NCBI GenBank assembly: GCA_965237735.1 | Contig: CBDEFV010000002.1 | Location: forward strand, 33,958 to 97,957 | Length of the DNA stretch: 64,000 bases | Direction: 5' to 3' | Source: Candidatus Porifericomitales bacterium | GTDB taxonomy: Bacteria; Pseudomonadota; Gammaproteobacteria; CBDEFV01 | Part shown: in pieces, positions 2,656 through 22,961 of the stretch | How the letters are laid out: every line of letters begins with the position of its first letter | Numbering within the stretch: the first letter of the stretch is position 1 | Notes under the pieces: model-generated | Seen by the model: only the letters and a program-made list of their open reading frames with translations | Told to the model about the DNA's origin: nothing | Database searches by the model: none | Translations under genes and position numbers: made by a program

Positions 2656-4013
2656 TGCCAGATCACCAGGGATGTGGCGAGGCCGAGCAGCGTCACGAAG
2701 CCGACGACATCGGTGACGGTTGTCAGCAGGACGCCGCCGGAGACGGCCGGATCGAGATGGATGCGCCTGAGCCCCATGGGGATCAGGACGCCGGCCAGCG
2801 CACCTGCGATCAGGTTGATGGCGGTGGCGGCGGCGATGACAAGGGAGACGCCCGAGTGGCCAAACCAGAGCCAGGAGATCAGGGCCAGCGAGGAGGCCCA
2901 GATCAGACCGTTGATGAGGCCGAGCGAGATCTCTTTGATGAGAAGCTGTATGGAGTTGTCGCGGGAGAGGTAATTCAGGGCCTGGGCGCGGATGACCAGA
3001 GTCATGGTCTGGATGCCGGCGATGCCGCCCATGCTGGCGACGGCCGGCATGATCACGGCGAGGGCGACGACACGCTCGATGGTGTGCTGGAAAAAGCCGA
3101 TGAACCAGGCTGTGACGAGGGCGGTCGCGAGGTTGATGCCGAGCCAGGTCGAGCGGTTGCGAAAGGCCTTGGCCGAGGCGCGGAAGAGGTCTTCGTTGCT
3201 GCGCACGCCGGCTCGCTGCAACAGCGATTCTTCGGTGCTGCTGCGGACAAAATCGACGACGTCATCGACGGTGACCCGGCCCAGCAGTTTGCCGTCGTCG
3301 TCGGTTACCGGCGCCGACAGCAGATCGCGGTCCTCAAACAGGCGCGCCACCTCCTCGGCGGGGGTGTCGGCCCTGAACGAGATGTAGTCGCGATCCATGG
3401 CGTCGCTGACGAGAGTACTCTCTCTGGTCGTCAGCAGTTTGGGCAGGTGGAGCACGCCCAGGAGGCGGTTGTCCCTGCCGACGATCATGAGTTTGTCGGT
3501 GCCGGGCGGCATGTCGCCGCGCATGCGCAGATAGCGCTGCACCACCTCGAGCGAGCAGTCGCTGCGGACACTGAGGGTGTCGATGTCCATGAGGCCGCCG
3601 GCGCTGTCCTCCGGGTATCCCATGTACTGCTCGAGGCGGGCGCGGTTGTCCTGGTCCATGCCCTCGAGCAGTTGCTCGGCGAGGGTGTCGGGCAGGGCCT
3701 GCAGGAAGTCGACGAGATCGTCGATATCAACGGAGTCAAGGGCGTGGAGCAGCTCTTCGGTATCCATGTCCTCGATCAGTGTCTCGCGCACCTCTTCGCC
3801 CAGCTCCACCAGAGTGTCGCCGCGGGCGGCGGGGGCGACGAGATGCCACAGCAGCAGGCGCCGGTCGCTCGGCAGGGAGGTCAGCAGGCGGCCGATTTCG
3901 CTCGGGTGCAGGGCGTTGACGAGGCGCCGGGCGCGCATGTCGCCGCTGGCGGTCGCCTCCAGCAGTTGCTGCAGATCGTGGGCGGGGATTTTATCGGGTT
4001 CGGTTCTTGCCAC
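2652..4013 (-). CDS. mgtE: Magnesium transporter MgtE
   Basis: MgtE_N region, CBS pair (EDSAGGLM, GRVTVDD) and TM domain (GGIAGIQT, DPAVSGG, TTVTDVVG). Confidence 0.93.
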   Translation of the reverse strand: MARTEPDKIPAHDLQQLLEATASGDMRARRLVNALHPSEIGRLLTSLPSDRRLLLWHLVAPAARGDTLVELGEEVRETLIEDMDTEELLHALDSVDIDDLVDFLQALPDTLAEQLLEGMDQDNRARLEQYMGYPEDSAGGLMDIDTLSVRSDCSLEVVQRYLRMRGDMPPGTDKLMIVGRDNRLLGVLHLPKLLTTRESTLVSDAMDRDYISFRADTPAEEVARLFEDRDLLSAPVTDDDGKLLGRVTVDDVVDFVRSSTEESLLQRAGVRSNEDLFRASAKAFRNRSTWLGINLATALVTAWFIGFFQHTIERVVALAVIMPAVASMGGIAGIQTMTLVIRAQALNYLSRDNSIQLLIKEISLGLINGLIWASSLALISWLWFGHSGVSLVIAAATAINLIAGALAGVLIPMGLRRIHLDPAVSGGVLLTTVTDVVGFVTLLGLATSLVIWH

Positions 4014-7981: not shown

Positions 7982-8063
7982 AGAGGTGGTCAGAACCCGA
8001 CCATCAGTACCCTTACAAATAGCCAACGCGCTTGAGGTTGGAGTTGATGATTTGAGTAAGTAA
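7982..8063 (+). pseudogene. Relic of the C-terminal half of an XRE-family HTH (controller-like) gene
   Basis: RGGQNPTISTL (7982-8014), a 1-nt frame change, then IANALEVGVDDLSK* ending 2 nt before the mod ATG; resembles XRE helices 4-5. Confidence 0.55.
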
Positions 8064-8065
8064 TT

Positions 8066-8866
8066 ATGAACAATCTCACCCTCACCGAAGAGCAGACCGA
8101 ATTTTTAATAAAGACGCTTCAAGACGGAAAAGAAATTCCGCTTGATTTTAAGCACTTGCTTTTCCCAACCACTAACAAAGAATATGAGTTGGCGTATGCG
8201 GGGAAAATGCGTAAAGAGGATTTGCTTGCAAACGAGGATGGGGTTTTTCCTGTTCCGATTCAAGTTGAAAAAGTGTTCAATGGCAATGAGTATAAAGCGT
8301 TTGAGGATGGTTGGAAAAACATGCTCGTGTTTGGTGACAACCTGCAATTTCTTAAAACTCTCTATAAAAATGAAGACCCACTTATCAAGGATAAGGTGAA
8401 AGGAAAAGTAAGACTGATTTATATCGATCCGCCTTTTGGTACTGGTGACGAATATGACGGAAACAGAGGACAAAGTGCCTACAGTGCAAAAAGAAAAGGT
8501 GCAGAGTTTATAGAATTCCTAAGAAGAAGATTGATTTTACTGAGAGAGTTGCTTGCTGATGATGGAAGTATTTATGTGAGAATAGATTATCGTTTCGGAC
8601 ATTATGTCAAAGTATTGATGGATGAAATTTTCGGTAAACAAAATTTCAAAAACCAGATTGTGATTAATAAATCAGTAAGACCGATGGAGGGTGTAAGACA
8701 ATTTCATTCTGGGCATGATTTTTTATTGTTCTATAGCAAGACAAACAATTATTGCTTCAATAACTATGAAATTCAAAAAGAAAGAGTACAATATCGTGCA
8801 ATGCACTTACCTGGTGTTCGATGGTCACCCATAGGTTATGAAGAAAAACAAAATTGCTGGATTTGA
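8066..8866 (+). pseudogene. mod: Type III R-M adenine methyltransferase (Mod), N-terminal fragment
   Basis: FGDNL, IYIDPPF (motif IV), HYVKVLMDEIFG; no motif I (FxGxGT) in this ORF or the next. Confidence 0.8.
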
Positions 8867-9578
8867 ATTTGACGGCAAAAAAGGTGACTTTCCAGTAAAG
8901 ATATTTGATTATCGAACTTTTAAGAATTCAAAAATTGATGAAGACTACCTCGAAGAAATACACGCCGTTGTCGGAAAGAGGGTGAGTGGCCGTGTATATA
9001 TCATCGCCCCTATAAATTATGTTGATTTCCTTCCTGACTATCACGAAATTGATAGGGTGAAATATTATTTCCTCAAGATCCCGTATCACGTTATCAAAGG
9101 TCTGCACAAAGAGTCATTCCATAAATTACGCCAACCGCAGAGCAAGAAAAATGTGAACGACCTAGAAGAAGCGATCGGTTTTCACTTCATTCACCATCCC
9201 GAAGTAAAGTCTGAATTAAAGAAAGGCAAGGACGGGGTAAAGATTGTGATCGAGAGCTTTGTGAGTCGCGAGCCTGAATCAGGCAGGGCACAAGACGAGA
9301 GGGGTATGAAGAATTTTGAAACTCTTTCGGCTGTCTTTGTGGACAAGAGCTACAATGGCAGGGCGTTCGAGATGGATGAAGCGTTTTTTGCCGATGAGCT
9401 TTTGCCAAAGAAATCAAAAAAGAACGACAGCGATGGTGAAGATATAAAAGTGGAGCTGAAAAAACTGGAAAAGAAGGGTTTGGAAATTACACTCAAAAGA
9501 TCAGGACTTGAAAAGCAAGTGATGGTAATTTATATAGATATATACGGAAATGATTTTTCGGAAGTATTCACGATATAG
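8838..9578 (+). pseudogene. Probable C-terminal fragment of the Mod subunit (may be translated separately)
   Basis: Overlaps the mod fragment by 29 nt in another frame, sits between mod and res, has the same low GC and no catalytic motifs. Confidence 0.6.
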
Positions 9579-9583
9579 AGAAT

Positions 9584-12178
9584 GTGGTTGTGCAAGATAG
9601 TAAAACCTACAGGCAAAAAGACTTGGTTCTCAATGTAAACCCGTCTTATGATCCGGCGAAACTCGATTTAAGCGCGTGGGATTCTTTCCTAGACACTTTG
9701 TGTGGCGATAGAGAGTATCAAAAAGAGGCAACAAAACAGGCGATCATTTTCCTTGCATCCCAGCGATATGAGACAACGCAAGATTTAGTGGCTGAAAACT
9801 ACCCGAAAAATCCTGAGTTGCAGGAAAAATACTCCACTAAAAACGACTACTATTGTCGCTTGCAACTCCAAGATAAACTTTTTGCAAATATTGATTTAGC
9901 GACGGGTACAGGAAAATCCTATGTGATCTACGGTGTTGCACAGATAATGCTCGGATTTGGTTTGGTAGACAAGGTATTGGTGCTTTGTCCGTCTTTAACC
10001 ATTGAAAATGGTTTGATGGAAAAGTTTGAACGATTAAGCGGAGACGGGCGAATCAAAAAAGCTATACCAACAAATGCGCGCTACGCAAACCCGAGTATTG
10101 TTGATGCAAATGTTACGGTAAAAGAGGGAAGCATTTGCATAGAAAACATCCACTCTGTTTACGAAACAACAGGATCATCAATCAAAGATAGTTTTCAAAA
10201 GGGTGAGCGCGTCTTGGTGCTCAATGACGAATCTCACCATATTTTCAATAGGATTTCAGGCAACATGGCGGGAGCTAAAGGATTAAAGCAGTGGAAAAAG
10301 TTTTTGCTTAACTCTGACTATAAATTTAAGTACATTCTTGGCTTTACTGGTACGGCATACCATGACAACAATTATTTTAACGACATTATCTATCGCTATT
10401 CGCTTCGCGAGGCGATTGGGGATCGGATTGTAAAGAATATCGAATACGTCCAGAGGGATGATAGTATAGGAACGGATGAAAAGTTTCAGAAAATCTATCA
10501 AAACCACAGAGAAAACATTGATAATTACCCAAAGGTCAAACCGCTTTCTATTTTGATCACCAAAGATATTTCAAAAGCAAAAAGCCTGCGAGAAGATTTG
10601 ATTAATTTTCTTGAAAAGAAAGAAGATAGACCACAAGAAAGTGTCGAGAATAAAGTGTTGATTGTTACTTCTCACAAAGAACACAGAGCAAATCTGCTGA
10701 AACTAAAAACGGTTGATGACAGAGAAAACCCGGCCGAATGGATTGTGTCTGTCTCCATGCTCACAGAGGGGTGGGATGTAAAAAATGTGTTTCAAATCGT
10801 TCCGTGGGAAGACAAAGCTTTTAATTCAAAACTGCTTATCGCTCAAGTTTTGGGTCGCGGATTGCGTTTGCCAGAAGCGTATACTTCTCCGCAACCAAAG
10901 GTGATTGTTTTTAACCACGACGCTTGGAGTAGACGTATAAAAGCCCTTGTTGATGAGGTTTTAGAAATTGAAACTCAAATGATTAGTGAAGTCATAACAA
11001 GCGGCGATCGTTTAAAACATCACTTTGACCTGCATAACCTTAATTACACCAGAATAGAAGTTGAGGTGGAACACAGGCCAAACCCTGTCGTTAATTATTC
11101 CCGCATTGAAGAAGAGGGTATCAAACTGGAGTCTCAGGTTACACAAGTAGAAAAAGGGACCTCTTATGAATCCATAGAGGGCAGGGTTCGAGACAAAAAA
11201 TACATTATTGAATACGAAACAAGGACTGTTCAAGAAGTTGTAGACCGAATTTATGGAGAATTTGAGATCAGGGACTGGGAAGGAAGAATTTTGAGACTCG
11301 GTGAGGAACGATACACGCAAAATAATTTGCCACCAAAAGAAAAGATCCGAAAGATCATTCTCAAATCAATGGGAAATGTTAGTATCCAGGGCGATCAAAT
11401 TATTGAGAGAAATGTTAATCAGATACTCAAGGCATTTGGCACTCTGCTGCGAGGGGGGAGCAAAACAGTCGTCCCCAAATTGAAAGTGGAGGATCCTGTT
11501 CCAATTTCTACCAAAGAGATTATGCGTGAAAGTTCAGCTATCGGCAACTTTAGGCGTGGATATTCACTGTTTTATACAAATGACTGGGAAAATGAGGTTT
11601 TGGATGACGAACAGCGAAGTATTATAAAAAAGTTCATAGAAGATGAGAGTTTGCCAAGAAGCGCAGTCAGGGAACGAAACCCGTTCTCTTTCAAGACACC
11701 AGTCAGTGTTGTCTTTACTAATTCAGAGCCAGAGCGGAGATTTATTGAAAAACTCTGCGAAGACGAAGTGGCAGGGAAAATTGACGCTTGGCTCAAATCA
11801 CGGGATCGCGGCTTTTACGGCATTCAGTATTCTTGGCGACCATCGAATCACCAAAAAACGGGAGAGTTCAACCCTGATTTCTTCATTAAGGTCGGCAAGG
11901 ACGGTGTGGAATATTTTGTTGTTGTGGAGATAAAAGAAGACAAGGATGACAGTGATGAGAATAAGGCGAAGTATAAATATGCCAACAAGCATTTCGAACT
12001 CCTAAATCAAAGGCTTAAAGACAAGAAAATCAAACAAAAATACATTTTCCATTTCTTGAGCCCGGAAGGATACACAACTTTCTTTGAGTATCTAAAGGAT
12101 AGAAGAATCCTGGACGGACAAGAAAAGTTTAGGTGTGAGTTGGAAAATCTTATAGAAACAACTGACGATGAAGAATAA
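9584..12178 (+). CDS. res: Type III restriction endonuclease Res subunit (SF2 helicase/ATPase plus PD-(D/E)xK nuclease)
   Basis: LATGTGKS (Walker A), LNDESHH (Walker B), FTGT, MLTEGWD, QVLGRGLR, C-terminal PDFF...VEIK. Confidence 0.9.
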   Translation: MVVQDSKTYRQKDLVLNVNPSYDPAKLDLSAWDSFLDTLCGDREYQKEATKQAIIFLASQRYETTQDLVAENYPKNPELQEKYSTKNDYYCRLQLQDKLFANIDLATGTGKSYVIYGVAQIMLGFGLVDKVLVLCPSLTIENGLMEKFERLSGDGRIKKAIPTNARYANPSIVDANVTVKEGSICIENIHSVYETTGSSIKDSFQKGERVLVLNDESHHIFNRISGNMAGAKGLKQWKKFLLNSDYKFKYILGFTGTAYHDNNYFNDIIYRYSLREAIGDRIVKNIEYVQRDDSIGTDEKFQKIYQNHRENIDNYPKVKPLSILITKDISKAKSLREDLINFLEKKEDRPQESVENKVLIVTSHKEHRANLLKLKTVDDRENPAEWIVSVSMLTEGWDVKNVFQIVPWEDKAFNSKLLIAQVLGRGLRLPEAYTSPQPKVIVFNHDAWSRRIKALVDEVLEIETQMISEVITSGDRLKHHFDLHNLNYTRIEVEVEHRPNPVVNYSRIEEEGIKLESQVTQVEKGTSYESIEGRVRDKKYIIEYETRTVQEVVDRIYGEFEIRDWEGRILRLGEERYTQNNLPPKEKIRKIILKSMGNVSIQGDQIIERNVNQILKAFGTLLRGGSKTVVPKLKVEDPVPISTKEIMRESSAIGNFRRGYSLFYTNDWENEVLDDEQRSIIKKFIEDESLPRSAVRERNPFSFKTPVSVVFTNSEPERRFIEKLCEDEVAGKIDAWLKSRDRGFYGIQYSWRPSNHQKTGEFNPDFFIKVGKDGVEYFVVVEIKEDKDDSDENKAKYKYANKHFELLNQRLKDKKIKQKYIFHFLSPEGYTTFFEYLKDRRILDGQEKFRCELENLIETTDDEE

Positions 12179-12318
12179 TAGAGATTATCAATATAATTGG
12201 CAGTCACCGATTGCCGATTAGCGTTTTTGTGGCTTCGACTCAAGGGTCTGCCCAAGACGGAAGTGCTAATTCCAAATCCGTAATCAGCCCCCGCCCCCCT
12301 TCCCAACATCCAATCTCC

Positions 12319-16203: not shown

Positions 16204-16632
16204 GTGGAAGCAAAAATCACCATCGCCGAGTTTGAGAAGCTCATGGACGAGACGGCGCCCTTTGCCCGCCCCCTCGATCTCGGCATTGAGGAGCTCGGCG
16301 AGACCGTCATCATGACCATGCCAGCCAATGCCAACAACCTGCGGCCGGGCGGCACCATCTCGGGGCCGGCCATGATGGCCCTGGCGGACACGGCCGCCTA
16401 TGCTCTGGTGCTGGCCCATATCGGACTGGTGGAGTTGGCGGTGACCACGAACTTCAGCGTCAATTTTCTGCGCCGGCCCTCGCCGGGGCCTGTGAAGGCG
16501 GTGGCCAGCATGTTGAAGATCGGCCGGCGGCTGGCGGTCGTCGAGATCGACATCGAGGGTGATTTTGACGGCGGGCCCAAGCGGGTCGCCCATGTGGTCT
16601 GCACCTATTCGATTCCTCCCGACCGCGGCTGA
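16204..16632 (+). CDS. PaaI-family (hotdog fold) thioesterase
   Basis: LRPGGTISGPAMMALAD, AVTTNFSVNFLR, GRRLAV. Confidence 0.88.
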   Translation: MEAKITIAEFEKLMDETAPFARPLDLGIEELGETVIMTMPANANNLRPGGTISGPAMMALADTAAYALVLAHIGLVELAVTTNFSVNFLRRPSPGPVKAVASMLKIGRRLAVVEIDIEGDFDGGPKRVAHVVCTYSIPPDRG

Positions 16633-16699: not shown

Positions 16700-17404
16700 A
16701 TGAAATCCGCAGACTTTAGCGACATTCAGGCCCTGGCGTTCGATGCCTATGGCACCCTCTTCGACGTCCACTCCGCCGTCGCCCGCCACAACGAGGCCGT
16801 CGGCCTTCAGGCCGGCGAGCTCTCCGCCTGCTGGCGGCAGAAGCAGTTGCAGTACACCTGGCACCGCAGCCTCGCCGGCTGCTATGAGGACTTTGAACGC
16901 CTGACGGAGGATACGCTCGACTACGCCATGGAGACCTTCGGACTCCAGGACGACGAACTGCGCCGGCAGCTGCTCGCCGCCTACTTCACCCTGGAGGCCT
17001 TCGCCGAAGTGCCCGGCGTACTCAGACAGCTGGCGACCGCCGGCATGAAGCTGGCGATCCTCAGCAACGGCACCCCGGCCATGCTCGATGCCGCCGTTTC
17101 CACCGCAGGCCTTGACGGCCTCTTCGATGAATGTCTGTCGGTTCATGAACTCCAGGTCTACAAACCGGACCCGCGGGTCTATCAGTTGGCGGTTGACCGC
17201 CTCGGAGTGAAGGCCGGCGAGATCTGCTTTCAGTCGTCGAACTCCTGGGACGCCCACGCGGCTGCCGATTTTGGCATGCGGGTCGCCTGGGTCAACCGCT
17301 ACAATCAGGTGCGCGACCGCCTGCCTGCCGCTCCGGCGGCCGAACTCGGCAGCCTCGCCGAGTTGCCGTCGCTATTGGGCCTCGCCGAGCCGGCGCCGCT
17401 TTAA
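16700..17404 (+). CDS. L-2-haloacid dehalogenase (HAD type II)
   Basis: FDAYGTLFDV nucleophile motif, WRQKQLQYTW, LSNG, YKPDP, SSNSWD. Confidence 0.9.
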   Translation: MKSADFSDIQALAFDAYGTLFDVHSAVARHNEAVGLQAGELSACWRQKQLQYTWHRSLAGCYEDFERLTEDTLDYAMETFGLQDDELRRQLLAAYFTLEAFAEVPGVLRQLATAGMKLAILSNGTPAMLDAAVSTAGLDGLFDECLSVHELQVYKPDPRVYQLAVDRLGVKAGEICFQSSNSWDAHAAADFGMRVAWVNRYNQVRDRLPAAPAAELGSLAELPSLLGLAEPAPL

Positions 17405-17501: not shown

Positions 17502-18954
17502 GTGAAAGATATTTTTGCCAACTACATCGCCGGCGAGTGGCGGCGCTCCGCAACCGCCACGGCCAACATGAACCCGTCCGACACGACTGATCAGATCGGC
17601 CTTTACAGTCAGGCGGGCGCGGCCGACATCGACGAGGCCGTCGAGGCCGCCCGGGCGGCCCAGCCGGCCTGGGCCGCCCTCGGCCTCGAGGCGCGGGTGC
17701 GGGCCCTGACGGCCATCGGCGACGAGATGCGGGCGCGGGCCTCTGAGCTCGGCGAACTCCTGGCGCGGGAGGAGGGCAAGACGCGGGCCGATGGCATCGG
17801 CGAAGTGCAGCGCGCCGGTCAGTTTTTTCAGTATATACGGGGCCGAGGTTCTGCGGCTGCAGGGCGATTTCGCCGATTCGGTGCGCCCCGGCGTCGAGAT
17901 CGCCGTCAGTCGCGAGCCGGTTGGCGTGGTCGCCGTCATCTCGCCGTGGAACTTCCCCACAGCCACAGCCAGCTGGAAGATCGCCCCGGCTCTCGCCTTC
18001 GGCAACAGCCTGGTGTGGAAGCCGGCCAATCTGACTCCGGCTTCGGCTTGGGCGCTGACGGAAATCATCAGCCGTCAGGGGTTGCCGCCGGGCACCTTCA
18101 ACCTGGTCATGGGCGACGGCTCCGAGGCCGGCGGCGCCCTGGCCCGCCACCCTCAGGTGCGGGCGATCAGCTTCACCGGCTCGGTCGCCACCGGCCGCCG
18201 CGTGGCGGCGGCCTCCCTGGAAAATATGGCCCGCATCCAACTGGAGATGGGATCGAAGAACGCCCTTCTGGTCATGGACGATGCCGACCTGCAACTGGCG
18301 GTCTCCTGCGCCCTCGTCGGCGCCTATTCCAGCTGTGGCCAGAAGTGTACGGCCTCGAGCCGCCTGATCGTCCACGAAAAAGTCCACCATGCCTTTGTCG
18401 AAGGGCTGGCCCAGGCCCTCAAGGACATGAAGGTCGGCCACGCCCTCGCCGAGGACAGCCAGTTGGGGCCGGTTGTCAGCGAGGGACAGCTGGCCTCGAA
18501 TCTCGAATACGTCCAACTCGCCCAGGGCGAGGGCTGCCAGCTGGTCCAGGGCGGCGGCAGGCTGGAGATGGCGACTCCGGGCCACTACATGGAGCCGGCT
18601 CTTTTTGTCGGCGGCAACAACTCCATGCGCGTCAACCGCGAGGAGATGTTCGCCCCCATTGCCTGCGTCATCGAGGTCGGTTCCTACGAAGAGGGGCTGG
18701 CCCTGACCAACGACACCGATTTCGGCCTGACTTCGGGCATGGTGACAGCATCGCTGGCGCGGGCGGCGCACTTTCGCCGCCATGCCGAGACAGGTTGCGT
18801 CATGGTCAACCTGCCGACCGCGGGCACCGACTATCACGTGCCCTTCGGCGGCCGCAAGGATTCGAGTCATGGACCGCGCGAGCAGGGACGCTATGCGGCG
18901 GAGTTCTACACTCAGGTGAAGACCGCCTATATCCAGTCGGGCGAGCCCCGGTGA
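17502..18954 (+). pseudogene. Aldehyde dehydrogenase, frameshifted at about 17835
   Basis: N-terminus (NPSD, EEGKT) in the 17502 frame; SPWNFP, FTGS, LEMGSKN, GQKCTAS, EEMFAP in the 17791 frame; removing one A from CAG TAT A TAC restores QYYGAE. Confidence 0.85.
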
Positions 18955-19919
18955 GCCGGGCGGCGCCCCTGATCGACGGCCTGCAGTACTGCAACTGGTC
19001 GCGGAGGATCTTTGACGACATGGCCGCGGGCGGGCTCGATGCCGTCCATGTGACCCTGTCGTACCACGAAGACCTGCGCGAGACCATCGCCCACATCGCC
19101 CGCTGGAACCGGCGCTTCCAGCGCTTTTCCGACCGCATCCTGCCCGGCTGCGCGGCGGCCGATGTCGAGCGGGCCCAGGAATCAGGGCGGACGGCAATCT
19201 TTTTTGGCCTGCAGACGGCGGCCCCGATTCAGGACGACATCGGCCTCGTCGAGATCCTCCACAGGCTGGGGGTGCGCTTCATGCAACTGACATACAACGA
19301 CCAGAGCCTTCTGGCATCGGGCTACTGCGAGCCGGAGGACGGAGGGCTGACGCGCATGGGGCGCGAGGTCGTCAGCGAGATGAACCGGGTCGGCATGGTG
19401 GTCGATATGTCGCACTCGGGCGAGCGTTCGACACTCGAAGCGATCGAGCATTCGCAGCGGCCGGTCGCGGTGACCCATGCCAATCCGGATTTCTGGCGCG
19501 AGGGGCCGCGGAACAAGTCGCGACAGGTTATCGAGGCCCTGGCCGAGAGCGGCGGCGTACTCGGGCTCAGCCTCTACCCCCACCACCTCGCCGGCGGCCC
19601 TGACTGCACCCTGGCCGACTTCTGCGTCATGGCGGCCCGGGTCGTCGAGATCATGGGGGGCGACAGGGTCGCCATCGGCAGCGATCTCTGCCAGGACCAG
19701 CCGGGGGATGTGCTGCGCTGGATGCGTAGCGGCCGCTGGCTTATCGATGAAGACGAAGAGGGACACGGGCTCGAATTTCCGCCCCAGCCCAGCTGGTTCC
19801 GCAGCAACCGCGACTTCCCGCGCCTGGCCGGGGGGCTGGCCGCGGCCGGCTTCGACAGCGGCGGCGTCGCCGCCATTCTCGGCGGCAACTGGCTCGACTT
19901 CTTTCGCCGCTCGTTCTAG
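18951..19919 (+). CDS. Membrane dipeptidase-like amidohydrolase (M19 family)
   Basis: GTG 18951 overlaps the ALDH stop; LIDGLQYCNWS, QLTYN, DMSHSG, THAN, IGSDL. Confidence 0.85.
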   Translation: MSRAAPLIDGLQYCNWSRRIFDDMAAGGLDAVHVTLSYHEDLRETIAHIARWNRRFQRFSDRILPGCAAADVERAQESGRTAIFFGLQTAAPIQDDIGLVEILHRLGVRFMQLTYNDQSLLASGYCEPEDGGLTRMGREVVSEMNRVGMVVDMSHSGERSTLEAIEHSQRPVAVTHANPDFWREGPRNKSRQVIEALAESGGVLGLSLYPHHLAGGPDCTLADFCVMAARVVEIMGGDRVAIGSDLCQDQPGDVLRWMRSGRWLIDEDEEGHGLEFPPQPSWFRSNRDFPRLAGGLAAAGFDSGGVAAILGGNWLDFFRRSF

Positions 19920-19921
19920 TC

Positions 19922-21626
19922 GTGGCTGAGGTGGGGAGCGCCGCAGCAACGCCGTTTCAGGGCGCCGCTCTGCCCGCGCGACCGCCGTCCGAAGTTGCCC
20001 GCCTGCAGCGCCTGGGCGCGGCCCACTCGACCCGGCTCAGCTTTATGCGCTCATTGCTGCGCCTGCTGGCGCGGCAGGACTGGCAGCTCGGGTGCTCGCA
20101 GCGCCAGTGGGATGAGCAGGGCCACGGCTGGGCTCTCTATGGTGGCCCGCGGCCCGGAGCGCTGCTACAGCCTGGTGGCCTTCACCCATGCCCTCGCCGA
20201 CGAGGAGCGCAGCGATCGGGTGATCGCCGAGCGCTGGGACGCCACCTTCGCCCTGCTCGACGGCGAGGCCGGGGCCGCCGACATCGAGCGCCTGCGGGTC
20301 CAGATTCCGCTGCAGGAGAAGGGGCGGGTCTCGCGTCGCGAACTGGTGCTGAGTCGCGCCAACAAGAGCGTACGCATGTTTGAATATGTCTGCGGCCGCC
20401 TCGCCGGGGGACGGCAGCCGGAGCCCGGCCGGGTGATCGAGGTCGGCTATCTGATGAGGACGACGGCGGTCTACGGCAACGGCAAGTTCGGCCTCGCCGA
20501 CCGCATCTGCATCGCCGACCGGCCCGAGCTCGCCGGCCCTTTTCGCGCTGAGCTGCTGGCGGTCTACCTGATCCGCGCCTTCACCCACGACCTGGTCAAC
20601 TATCTGGCGCGGGTGCGCGGCGGCAGCCGGGCGGTCGAGCTCGATCCGAAGATTCAGCGCTTTCTCGGCATCGGCAACTCGACCGGCCTCGGCATGGCCC
20701 CCTTCCTCAACAAGCACCCGCAGTTGCTGCACCGCTGGCTCGGGGCGCGCGAGCGGGCCCTCTCCCTGATCTGCAGTCAGCCCGAAGCGACGGAGGCGGC
20801 TGCGTTCAGGAAGCTGTTGCAGCGGGCGAGGCTGCATGTAGCCGGTTGGAAAGTCGCCGATCAGCGTCAGAGCGACCGCATTGAACAGTTGAACCGCGAT
20901 CTCGGGTTGATCTCGCGGCGGGCCGAGTCGATTCTGGCCGCCCCCCGCCCTTGGGCACAGTTGATGGAATGGGCGTCCGGGGCGGTGGCGCTGGAGGCGC
21001 AGGAGATGCTGTTCAGCCTCGTGATCGAGCCTCATGGGAAGCTGGTTGATCACTTGGAGGACCAACTCGCCTGCGAAGAGCACAAGGCCCTCGACGCCTC
21101 CATGAAAGTGGGGCAGCTGTTGCAGTTGCTCGAGCGCGACTACGCCTGGGCCCTGAGGTCGGAGCTGGATGCAGGCGACTGTGCCCGTTTCTGGTATGTA
21201 TCGCAAGAGAAACTCGAACCGCGTATCGGCTGGCGCTAGGCAGAGCCCGGCAGCTCACGCGAGATGCCGCTGGGAGTCACCCGCGCCCTGAGCCAGTTGC
21301 AGACCCTGTTGCGGCGGGCCGACCCCGAAGAGAGGGCGGGGCGTCTTGCCGCCCGCTTCCCCGAGACACGCCACTGGTTGCGGCGGGTCCAGACCCTGGC
21401 CTCGACCCCTTATGGAGAGGTGCGCGACAACCTGCTGGCGTCCGGCATGCGGCCCCTCGATCTGCTGCGCGGGAAGCTTGCCATGTTCGGCGCCACCAAA
21501 TTTGATCCCCAGTCGGATCTGTGGCTGCGCATCCACATGTTCCAGGGGGCGCCCCTGCCTTCCGATCTCAGTTCGCGCGATTCGCATGTTGCCGATGACT
21601 GGCTCTTTCCCGTCTTTCAGGGCTGA
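19922..21626 (+). pseudogene. Conserved hypothetical protein (about 565 aa if repaired) with a frameshift at about 20141 and an in-frame TAG at 21237-21239
   Basis: Three track ORFs (19922.., 19995.., 21264..) join into one reading: HSTRLSFMR..GWALY / VARGPERCYSLVAF..SDRVIA..YGNGKFG..GIGNSTGLGMAPF..KLEPRIGWR*AEPG..FGATKFDP..FQGAP. Confidence 0.75.
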
Positions 21627-21905
21627 TTCCCCATTAATCGACTCGCCCCAATTTCTGGCTTAAAGGCTGCGGCGCGCCCTCCATCTGCTATCCTTAAAAA
21701 AGAATCATTGCGGGCTCAGGGGGCTGGCTGTGCCCCGCCCCTGACCCTGAGATCCCGCTTTTGTCCTTCTTGCCGCCCAGGACATCCAGAGCCGAGTTTC
21801 TTCAAGGAGCGCCCGGCGAGTGGCCAGCGGCTGTTTTGTCGCCCTTGGCGCGGGCTCTTTGGTTTGGCAGAGGGCTCGTGCCGCTGTGCCCTGCCCAGGT
21901 TTTAA

Positions 21906-22961
21906 ATGGCTTTGCAGAATAGAGACACACGCATCGCTGAGCTGCGCGAAATGCCGCGGCCAGTGGAGTTATTGCAGGAATTGCCGGCCGATGAGGCCAA
22001 TGAGCGGCTCGTTTATGCGAGCCGCGAAGCCGTGCATGAGATTCTCGCCGGCCGCGATGAGCGGGTACTGGTGGTGGTCGGCCCCTGCTCGGTCTACGAT
22101 GAGAAGGCGACTCTGGAGTACGCTGAAAAACTCGCTGCCGAGGCGCAGAAACACAGCAAGAATCTGCTCGTCATGATGCGCGTCTATTTTGAAAAGCCGC
22201 GCACTACTGTCGGCTGGAAGGGCATGATCAACGATCCCCACCTCGATGAGAGTTTTGAGATCGGCGTCGGCCTCAGACGCGCCCGCAAGCTGTTGCTGGC
22301 GGTCAATGCCCTGGGGCTGCCGGCCGGCACCGAGTTTCTCGATCCCATAGTGCCGCAGTATGTCGCCGATCTGATCAGCTGGGGCGCAATCGGCGCCCGC
22401 ACGACCGAGAGCCAGGTGCACCGCGAACTCGCCTCTGGCCTGTCCTGTCCCGTGGGCTTCAAGAACGGCACCTCGGGCAATGTACAGATTGCCGTCGACG
22501 CTGTCAAGTCGGCCCGTTTTCGCCATCACTTCATCGGCTCCGACAGCGAGGGGCGGGTGGCGGTGTTCGCCACCAGAGGCAACGAAGACTGCCACCTGAT
22601 TCTGCGCGGCGGCAGCGACAAGCCGAACTTCGATGCCGCCTCGGTGGCGGAGTCGAAGAGGCATCTGCAGCGGTCGAACCTGCCGCAGATGCTCATGATC
22701 GATTTCAGCCACGCCAACAGCAACAAGGATGCAGAGCGGCAAAAGCAGGTCTGCAGCGATGTCGCCGCCCAGATTGCGGCCGGCGAGCGCGCCATCATGG
22801 GAGTCATGGTCGAGAGCAATCTGGTCGGGGGGCGCCAGGAGATCAGCGCCAGCATGCGCTACGGCCAGAGCATCACCGACGCCTGCGTCGGCTGGGGCGG
22901 CACGGTCGAGATGCTGCAGCAGCTCAGCGAGGCCGTCGCGGCCGGCCGCAACCTGTTGTGA
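21906..22961 (+). CDS. aroG: 3-deoxy-D-arabino-heptulosonate 7-phosphate synthase (class I alpha)
   Basis: GPCS, YFEKPRTTVGWKG, GARTTESQVHR, GFKNGTSG, DFSHANS, SITDAC; the paralog name (aroG/F/H) is not resolved. Confidence 0.9.
   Translation: MALQNRDTRIAELREMPRPVELLQELPADEANERLVYASREAVHEILAGRDERVLVVVGPCSVYDEKATLEYAEKLAAEAQKHSKNLLVMMRVYFEKPRTTVGWKGMINDPHLDESFEIGVGLRRARKLLLAVNALGLPAGTEFLDPIVPQYVADLISWGAIGARTTESQVHRELASGLSCPVGFKNGTSGNVQIAVDAVKSARFRHHFIGSDSEGRVAVFATRGNEDCHLILRGGSDKPNFDAASVAESKRHLQRSNLPQMLMIDFSHANSNKDAERQKQVCSDVAAQIAAGERAIMGVMVESNLVGGRQEISASMRYGQSITDACVGWGGTVEMLQQLSEAVAAGRNLL

Follow-up and report, generated by a model that had tools for sequence, protein, structure and literature searches.

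The operon for the catabolism of homarine (N-methylpicolinate), homABCDER(T), was described by Ferrer-Gonzalez et al. (Nat Microbiol, March 2026; PMC13236597). In Cobetia sp. OBi1 (ACFLL8_11490-11520), the genes are arranged in the order homE-homA-homB-homT-homC-homD-homR, with homT encoding a BCCT transporter. In Ruegeria pomeroyi DSS-3, homA to homR correspond to SPO3188-SPO3192, and SPO3188 (homA) is annotated as 'hypothetical protein'. The products of homC and homD are a predicted peptidase and an aldehyde dehydrogenase (ALDH), respectively, and homB encodes a large protein without annotation; mutants in homB, homC, homD, and homR lose growth on homarine. The operon is distributed among Rhodobacterales, SAR11, SAR116, SAR92, and many Gammaproteobacteria, and the homB profile of the published study is highly specific (PMC13236597). 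Here, a related locus is described in a stretch of 64,000 nucleotides from Candidatus Porifericomitales bacterium (contig CBDEFV010000002.1, positions 33,958 to 97,957 of the forward strand), which is referred to as the window. The three genes at window positions 17502-21626 most probably represent homD-homC-homB of the homarine operon, in an atypical form that probably does not work as written.

The identification is based on a comparison of 160 related loci, 80 from species-representative genomes and 80 from metagenomes. The loci are phylogenetically non-independent, and the synteny fractions are descriptive. A DUF3726-like gene is positioned directly downstream of homB, with its start within 400 bp of the homB stop codon, in 135 of the 148 loci with enough flanking sequence. 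In 88 of 110 loci, homB is preceded by an M19-family gene of the same orientation, and an ALDH gene whose product is at least 55% identical to the window ALDH is found upstream in 39 of 103. In one subset of the loci, a BCCT transporter gene is inserted between the M19 gene and homB, and a divergent LysR gene is located beyond the ALDH gene. Rid- or Ldh_2-family genes flank subsets of the hom loci. The window-homologous loci thus resemble the published operon in the small hypothetical partner (homA being the DUF3726 gene), the BCCT gene between homB and homC, and the LysR regulator, and they share with it a taxonomic range that includes Rhodobacterales, SAR116, and Gammaproteobacteria. The operons of Cobetia and R. 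pomeroyi, in turn, resemble the window locus in having an ALDH, a 'peptidase', and a large unannotated protein in the same relative order and tightly coupled. Because gene content and order across the 160 loci match the published operon, the window genes are assigned as homD-homC-homB. Two of the features of a hom operon, a HomB-family protein and the co-location of homC and homD with homB, are present.

An earlier note on this DNA, prepared from the sequence without database searches, had pointed to a likeness to marine homarine clusters, and the gene content and order of the 160 loci, set against PMC13236597, bear this out. The note had made its proposal depend on the three genes occurring together elsewhere, which they do in the related loci. 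The Rid, BCCT, and regulator genes that it had suggested looking for at homologous loci were all found in subsets of them. Its description of the operon as poorly characterised is superseded, since the genetics have now been published (PMC13236597); the locus belongs to an already described system.

The position of the accessory genes differs among the related loci. In BCCT-containing clusters of the Rhodobacteraceae type, a Rid gene directly follows homA (loci L016, L024, L062, and L065, at approximately 10385-10700; loci L115 and L117, at approximately 3120-3440), whereas elsewhere this position is often occupied by a gene of the Ldh_2 family. Either of the two neighbours could be the gene named homE in PMC13236597, the main text of which does not specify its type.

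Two points weigh against the assignment to the homarine operon. It rests on architecture, annotation, and taxonomic range, and homarine has been shown to be the substrate for Cobetia and R. pomeroyi only. The window genes could instead belong to a paralogous HomC/HomB/HomA branch whose substrate is a different solute, either N-methylated or N-heterocyclic, such as the Pseudomonas dimethylglycine-linked branch (PDB 2i5g), or a branch for a trigonelline- or picolinate-type substrate. Besides the narrow demonstration of substrate specificity, such a branch would be consistent with the 52-58% identity of the window HomB to most family members, with the nearest solved HomC-like structure being an 'amidohydrolase' of unassigned function, and with the position of the homA gene of this genome beside genes of one-carbon and serine metabolism (glyA, glyA, and sdaA). 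However, the window ALDH shares 61-73% identity with its counterparts in complete hom loci that have BCCT and LysR genes, the published homB profile is highly specific (PMC13236597), and no dgcAB-like genes are adjacent, which makes a paralogous branch improbable.

The three genes of the homarine-type locus are co-directional, have a GC content of approximately 66-69%, and are tightly coupled, as the earlier note had observed. The stop codon of homD and the start codon of homC overlap in a GTGA sequence, and the gap between homC and homB is 2 nt. The genes and the spacer that follows them are:

17502..18954, + strand: homD-type ALDH, similar to 2,5-dioxovalerate / alpha-ketoglutarate-semialdehyde dehydrogenases; start GTG at 17502, stop TGA at 18952-18954; frame broken
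18951..19919, + strand: homC-type M19-fold amidohydrolase; start GTG at 18951, stop TAG at 19917-19919; intact
19922..21626, + strand: homB-type protein of approximately 567 residues; start GTG at 19922, stop TGA at 21624-21626; frame broken
21627..21905, no strand: non-coding spacer of 280 bp, the region where homA usually starts; a DAHP synthase gene begins at 21906

The protein encoded by homC is the product of the sole M19 gene of the genome and matches PF01244 (Peptidase_M19) with 231.9 bits (cut-off 26) over profile positions 37-318. The canonical M19 dipeptidases, represented by human DPEP1 (1itq) and Streptomyces Sco3058 (3id7), belong to the same TIM-barrel amidohydrolase family and share with HomC the beta-metal His residues and the Asp of the GSD motif. 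In HomC, by contrast, Leu and Tyr take the places of the alpha-site His and Asp, and Gln that of the bridging Glu. The sequence IDGLQY occupies the position of the HxD motif, which reads L-Q-Y, and FFGLQ is located at the bridging-Glu position, where its Gln aligns with the Glu of GAEGGH in Sco3058. The two beta-site His residues (in DMSH and THAN) and the Asp of GSD are retained relative to Sco3058 and human DPEP1. Of the components of the binuclear zinc site, namely HxD, the bridging Glu, and the two His, only the two His are kept. In addition, the His of what we take to be the canonical LTHN motif appears to be replaced by Tyr (QLTYN).

The unusual site is common to the whole HomC family. 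The alignment of 105 non-identical HomC sequences drawn from the fetched related loci displays the motifs IDxLQYxNW, GxQ, DMSH, THAN, and GSDLCQD. Residues D9, Q12, Q88, Y115, N116, H155, H176, and D245 are invariant in all 105 sequences, Y13 is present in 103, and L11 in 95. Because it is conserved across the 105 proteins, the non-canonical site represents a fixed, selected active site rather than decay. The best solved relative of HomC, PDB entry 2i5g ('amidohydrolase', a structural-genomics entry of 325 residues; E 7e-61 over residues 7-319), has similar changes, with IDGL at the HxD position and GFQ where the bridging Glu would be; it is farther from the window HomC than are the HomC orthologues of hom loci (55-66% identity). 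HomC is thus an M19-fold enzyme that lacks the full set of binuclear-zinc ligands, and the sensible reading of these sequence features is a mononuclear or metal-independent amidohydrolase for a small non-peptide amide.

The earlier note had pointed to DGLQY and FGLQ as signs of a non-canonical metal site, and both sequences are present, the altered site being common to the 105 orthologues. The case that the note had named as fatal to its proposal, an ordinary M19 dipeptidase, does not apply, as the metal ligands are replaced family-wide. A Pfam Peptidase_M19 score far over the cut-off is what an ordinary dipeptidase that happened to neighbour the other two genes would also give, but only two of the five canonical metal ligands persist, the three replacements are common to the 105 orthologues, the gene order is conserved across phyla, and the start and stop codons are coupled. 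The conserved synteny and the fixed changes of the HomC metal site rule out an ordinary dipeptidase placed there by chance, an explanation that retains practically no probability.

The protein encoded by homB has no match in Pfam or NCBIfam, in agreement with its description in the earlier note as large and domain-less. It is colinear with its nearest intact relative, P0002 (567 residues), with an identity of 86-87% across the three pieces, or 78-86% when these are aligned piece by piece. The alignment requires a change of frame after '...GWALY' and read-through of the TAG at 21237-21239. The HomB family contains at least 8000 clusters; all scored candidates are significant, with E down to 1e-122, and none has a Pfam domain. 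Typical relatives are 560-570 residues long, are annotated as 'hypothetical', and come from Rhodobacteraceae, Sulfitobacter, Marivibrio, Gammaproteobacteria, and others. Of the 132 columns that are invariant in the family, the window HomB keeps 131 and so equals the intact members in this respect. HomB is intact in the close relatives P0002, P0003, and P0121, and was not found in the 30 relatives of the same class examined, among which there is no close genome.

The relative P0121 is an intact HomB of 562 residues. At 90% identity it clusters with P0003, and P0003 in turn shares 86% identity with the window HomB. The contig of P0121, 2,286,184 bases long, probably represents a complete, closed genome from a lineage that is sister to the present metagenome-assembled genome.

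The structure of P0002 was predicted with AlphaFold2 from an alignment of 20 sequences (pLDDT 80, pTM 0.83). The model has no convincing counterpart in the PDB, with Foldseek E values of at least 0.12 and a best Z of 5.2 in the wide VIA search. A search of the ESM Atlas returned unnamed clusters only. The Foldseek comparison that the earlier note had recommended for the large protein yields, with the model of P0002, no convincing PDB match.

The product of homD matches the Pfam Aldedh profile in two parts. Profile positions 3-100 are encoded in the frame starting from GTG 17502, and positions 91-460 in the frame that ends at TGA 18954. The sequence where the frames join is 'cag ttt ttt c agt'. 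Over this stretch the orthologues have RAGQFFTYYAAE and lack no residue. Because they read straight through, exactly one extra base must be located in or next to the T6 run at 17823-17828. The best NCBIfam matches are DioxValDhHalo and GucD, both under their equivalog cut-offs, and the identity to the ALDHs upstream of the M19 gene in hom-type loci is 61-73%. The catalytic motifs PWNFP, LEMGSKN, and GQKCTA are all present. The six other ALDH genes of the genome are all intact.

The reading frames of the locus are interrupted within 4.1 kb by one frameshift in homD and by one frameshift and one in-frame stop codon in homB:

17823..17829, + strand: homD frameshift, caused by a single additional base in or beside the T6 run 17823-17828
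20139..20142, + strand: frameshift site in homB, an extra G near 20141, located from the alignment to P0002 and by the frame tracker
21237..21239, + strand: in-frame TAG in homB, in a variable column of the family that holds Y, F, A, H, or Q in relatives

The earlier note had spoken of repaired proteins and so had only implied that the genes are broken; the breaks in homD and homB are confirmed, and the M19-like gene is intact. The frames of the whole genome were followed with a codon-usage Viterbi frame tracker, which recovered both hom frameshifts to within a few bases. The 1.78 Mb of coding sequence contains 67 frameshift-like junctions (0.038 per kb), and given this background two or more frameshifts would fall in 4.1 kb with a probability of approximately 0.011. 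Across the genome the events form clusters, with 17 pairs within 3 kb of each other versus 6.3 expected (P ~0.001), as would be expected of real decaying genes. Among 1167 coding homopolymers of at least six bases, fewer than 1% carry an event, so the consensus is generally accurate. The extra G and the TAG in homB are outside long homopolymers, and carB and the other long genes of the window are uninterrupted. The scan for in-frame stops returned approximately 20 candidates genome-wide, mostly real gene junctions; it is insensitive and missed the TAG in homB. Two contig records that contain the broken fragments are the NCBI and ENA mirrors of one record and do not constitute an independent assembly.

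Since HomB keeps 131 of the 132 invariant residues, the lesions are either recent or assembly errors. We lean towards recent genuine inactivation in a small (2.27 Mb) genome. Three observations count against this. The frameshift-like events are approximately sevenfold enriched at homopolymers of at least six bases (13% versus 1.8%), which fits slippage mutation as well as long-read consensus error. The lesion in homD lies in a homopolymer, as is typical of consensus errors in long reads. Finally, the preservation of the invariant HomB residues together with an intact HomC means that no further decay is visible, which is equally compatible with assembly error. An assembly or consensus error over an intact operon is therefore a substantial possibility, if the less favoured of the two.

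The corresponding functional explanation is that the operon is intact and working, that the insertions and the TAG are errors of the long-read metagenome assembly, and that HomA is supplied in trans. All ALDH catalytic motifs and nearly all invariant HomB columns are present, the close relatives P0002, P0003, and P0121 have an intact HomB, and the homA gene, on contig C5, is itself intact. The assembly consists of only seven contigs. Nevertheless, the three lesions in 4.1 kb stand against a background of 0.038 frameshift-like events per kb (P ~0.01 for the two frameshifts alone), in-frame stops are rare in the genome, the G insertion and the TAG lie outside long homopolymers, and the locus has lost its neighbouring homA together with all accessory genes, as would be consistent with erosion. 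A working operon is thus credible but somewhat doubtful, and recent inactivation remains the preferred explanation.

An origin of the TAG in a Dcm-type CCAGG site, through methylation error or a deamination hotspot, was considered and dropped; the insensitive genome-wide scan of stop codons gave no excess of CTAGG. Since the family column of the TAG is variable, a change from TAY to TAG is equally possible.

Clusters of frame switches also occur elsewhere in the genome. Just past the right end of the window, another gene is broken several times, at C2:101383-102886; its three frameshift-like switches fall within 1.5 kb, with a T6 and a G6 run at two of the sites, and similar clusters are located at C4:149503-151036 and C7:569425-570100. 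The genome carries some tens of pseudogenes or residual long-read errors, and this bears on every finding of a broken gene in it.

The window locus differs from the published operon not only in the interrupted homD and homB, but also in having no regulator, transporter, or accessory genes. Most conspicuously, homA does not adjoin homB. The published hom operon has homA next to homB in 97.7% of genomes (PMC13236597), and here homA is on another contig. The absence of this obligate partner from the locus was overlooked in the earlier note. No DUF3726 gene or remnant was found within the window, and neither a homA remnant nor a repeat that would mark a rearrangement was found at 21627-21905. The DUF3726 domain (PF12525) occurs once in the genome, on contig C5 at 335585-336304 on the minus strand, in a protein of 239 residues. 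Its alignment to HomA proteins extends over the full length and takes in the S-R-x-x-G-A-G motif, which is invariant at their C-terminus. A DUF3726 gene was present in 17 of 400 further gammaproteobacterial genomes, in all 17 directly beside HomB; the present genome is the exception.

The homA gene is part of a co-directional run at C5:331000-338800 composed of a murA-like gene, hisG, homA, glyA (399 residues), a full-length glyA (506 residues), and sdaA. The two tandem paralogues of serine hydroxymethyltransferase beside homA suggest a one-carbon/serine module.

The other components of the published operon are similarly missing from the surroundings of homDCB. Its neighbours include no gene of the LysR, BCCT, Rid, or Ldh_2 families, and no BCCT gene was found in the whole genome. 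The single Ldh_2 gene of the genome adjoins pcnB, and its product is 35% identical to the hom-linked type; the single Rid gene is on contig C4. The position of homR is not filled, and the locus is flanked instead by genes for a HAD dehalogenase, a thioesterase, and DAHP synthase, flanks that are found at no other hom locus examined. Upstream of homD, the hotdog-fold thioesterase is encoded at window positions 16204-16632, and the type II haloacid dehalogenase of the HAD group, just upstream of homD, at 16700-17404 (TIGR01428, 226 bits, cut-off 125).

The predicted structure of HomA from this genome (pLDDT 88.6) resembles the Ldh_2 fold. Eight Ldh_2 structures match it at VIA Z 13.9-15.3 over approximately 200 residues, whereas the next best match has a Z of 5.6, and the Foldseek comparison with the Ldh_2 fold gives an E of 3e-7. 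The alignment of HomA to the Ldh_2 profile with hhalign has a probability of 53% and an E of 1.3e-4 and covers only the N-terminal 54 columns, where it picks up the helices at the N-terminus. A gap in this alignment falls where Ldh_2 proteins carry ERDGxxSHG (the S-H-G region), and Pfam assigns DUF3726 alone. HomA is thus predicted to have a cut-down Ldh_2 (NAD(P)H-oxidoreductase) fold, and the model does not resemble a recognizable flavin reductase. HomA has been described as carrying a motif for the binding of flavin adenine dinucleotide (FAD), and an analogy to TgnA/TgnB has been drawn (PMC13236597). The Ldh_2-like fold of the model would sit uneasily with both the FAD-binding motif and the analogy, and it disproves neither.

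Homarine degradation opens the ring with the N-methyl group kept; intermediates with the formulae C7H9NO5, C6H9NO4, and C6H9NO3 accumulate together with N-methylglutamine, and N-methylglutamate is formed and converted to glutamate by N-methylglutamate dehydrogenase (PMC13236597). The steps proposed here are assigned to enzymes from the formulae of the intermediates and the protein families, and the step chemistry in PMC13236597 is likewise inferred. HomB and its small partner HomA would attack the N-methylpyridinium ring in such a way that C6 becomes an N-formyl group and C5 an aldehyde. HomD, being of the alpha-ketoglutarate-semialdehyde type, would oxidize the C5 aldehyde to a carboxylate, and C7H9NO5 fits the putative product N-formyl-N-methyl-dehydroglutamate. 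HomC may then strip the formyl group to give C6H9NO4, or may open an N-methyl lactam, as C6H9NO3 fits N-methylpyroglutamate. A reductase, which could be the Ldh_2/DpkA-like enzyme of many loci or another enzyme, would next give N-methylglutamate, and a sox/mgd-type enzyme would demethylate it to glutamate. The genome contains two soxD-containing loci of the heterotetrameric sarcosine-oxidase / N-methylglutamate-dehydrogenase type, at C2:184600-191200 and C5:197436. The scheme of the earlier note, in which the large protein acts first, the M19-like protein cleaves a non-peptide amide, for example, of a ring-opened N-heterocycle, and the ALDH oxidizes a semialdehyde, gains support from the match to the operon, with the individual reactions being putative.

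The trigonelline pathway TgnAB-TgnC-TgnD of Acinetobacter baylyi, to which the analogy in PMC13236597 refers, follows the same logic, in which the ring of an N-methylpyridinium carboxylate is opened before an aldehyde is oxidized and an amide hydrolysed. However, no sequence or fold link between the Tgn and Hom proteins was found, and the HomB model matches nothing in the PDB. Because HomB has a fold with no PDB counterpart and HomA a shortened Ldh_2 fold without the S-H-G region, a first step that depends on a pyridine nucleotide is conceivable. It is possible, although rather unlikely, that homarine ring opening does not use a two-component flavin oxygenase of the TgnAB kind but a new pyridine-nucleotide-dependent chemistry, for example, hydride transfer to the pyridinium, with HomA being kept intact away from HomB.

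Since the homarine pathway has already been published (PMC13236597), the window locus by itself contributes little. Natural separations of homA from homB are rare, and this one is accompanied by fresh lesions in homDCB and as such bears on the loss of homarine use in marine bacteria with small genomes. The detached homA may be useful for asking whether HomA works in trans. The residual novelty of the system is in the chemistry of HomAB, which the window locus itself does not illuminate. The family-wide data, in the form of the fixed HomC site, the cut-down HomA fold, and the HomB model without a PDB match, sharpen the biochemical question that the genetics of PMC13236597 leave.

Elsewhere in the window, a block of approximately 4 kb at 8001-12200 has a GC content of 39-40% in a background of 62-69%. 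The block holds type III restriction-modification genes, including an open reading frame for a Res protein of 864 residues at 9584-12178.

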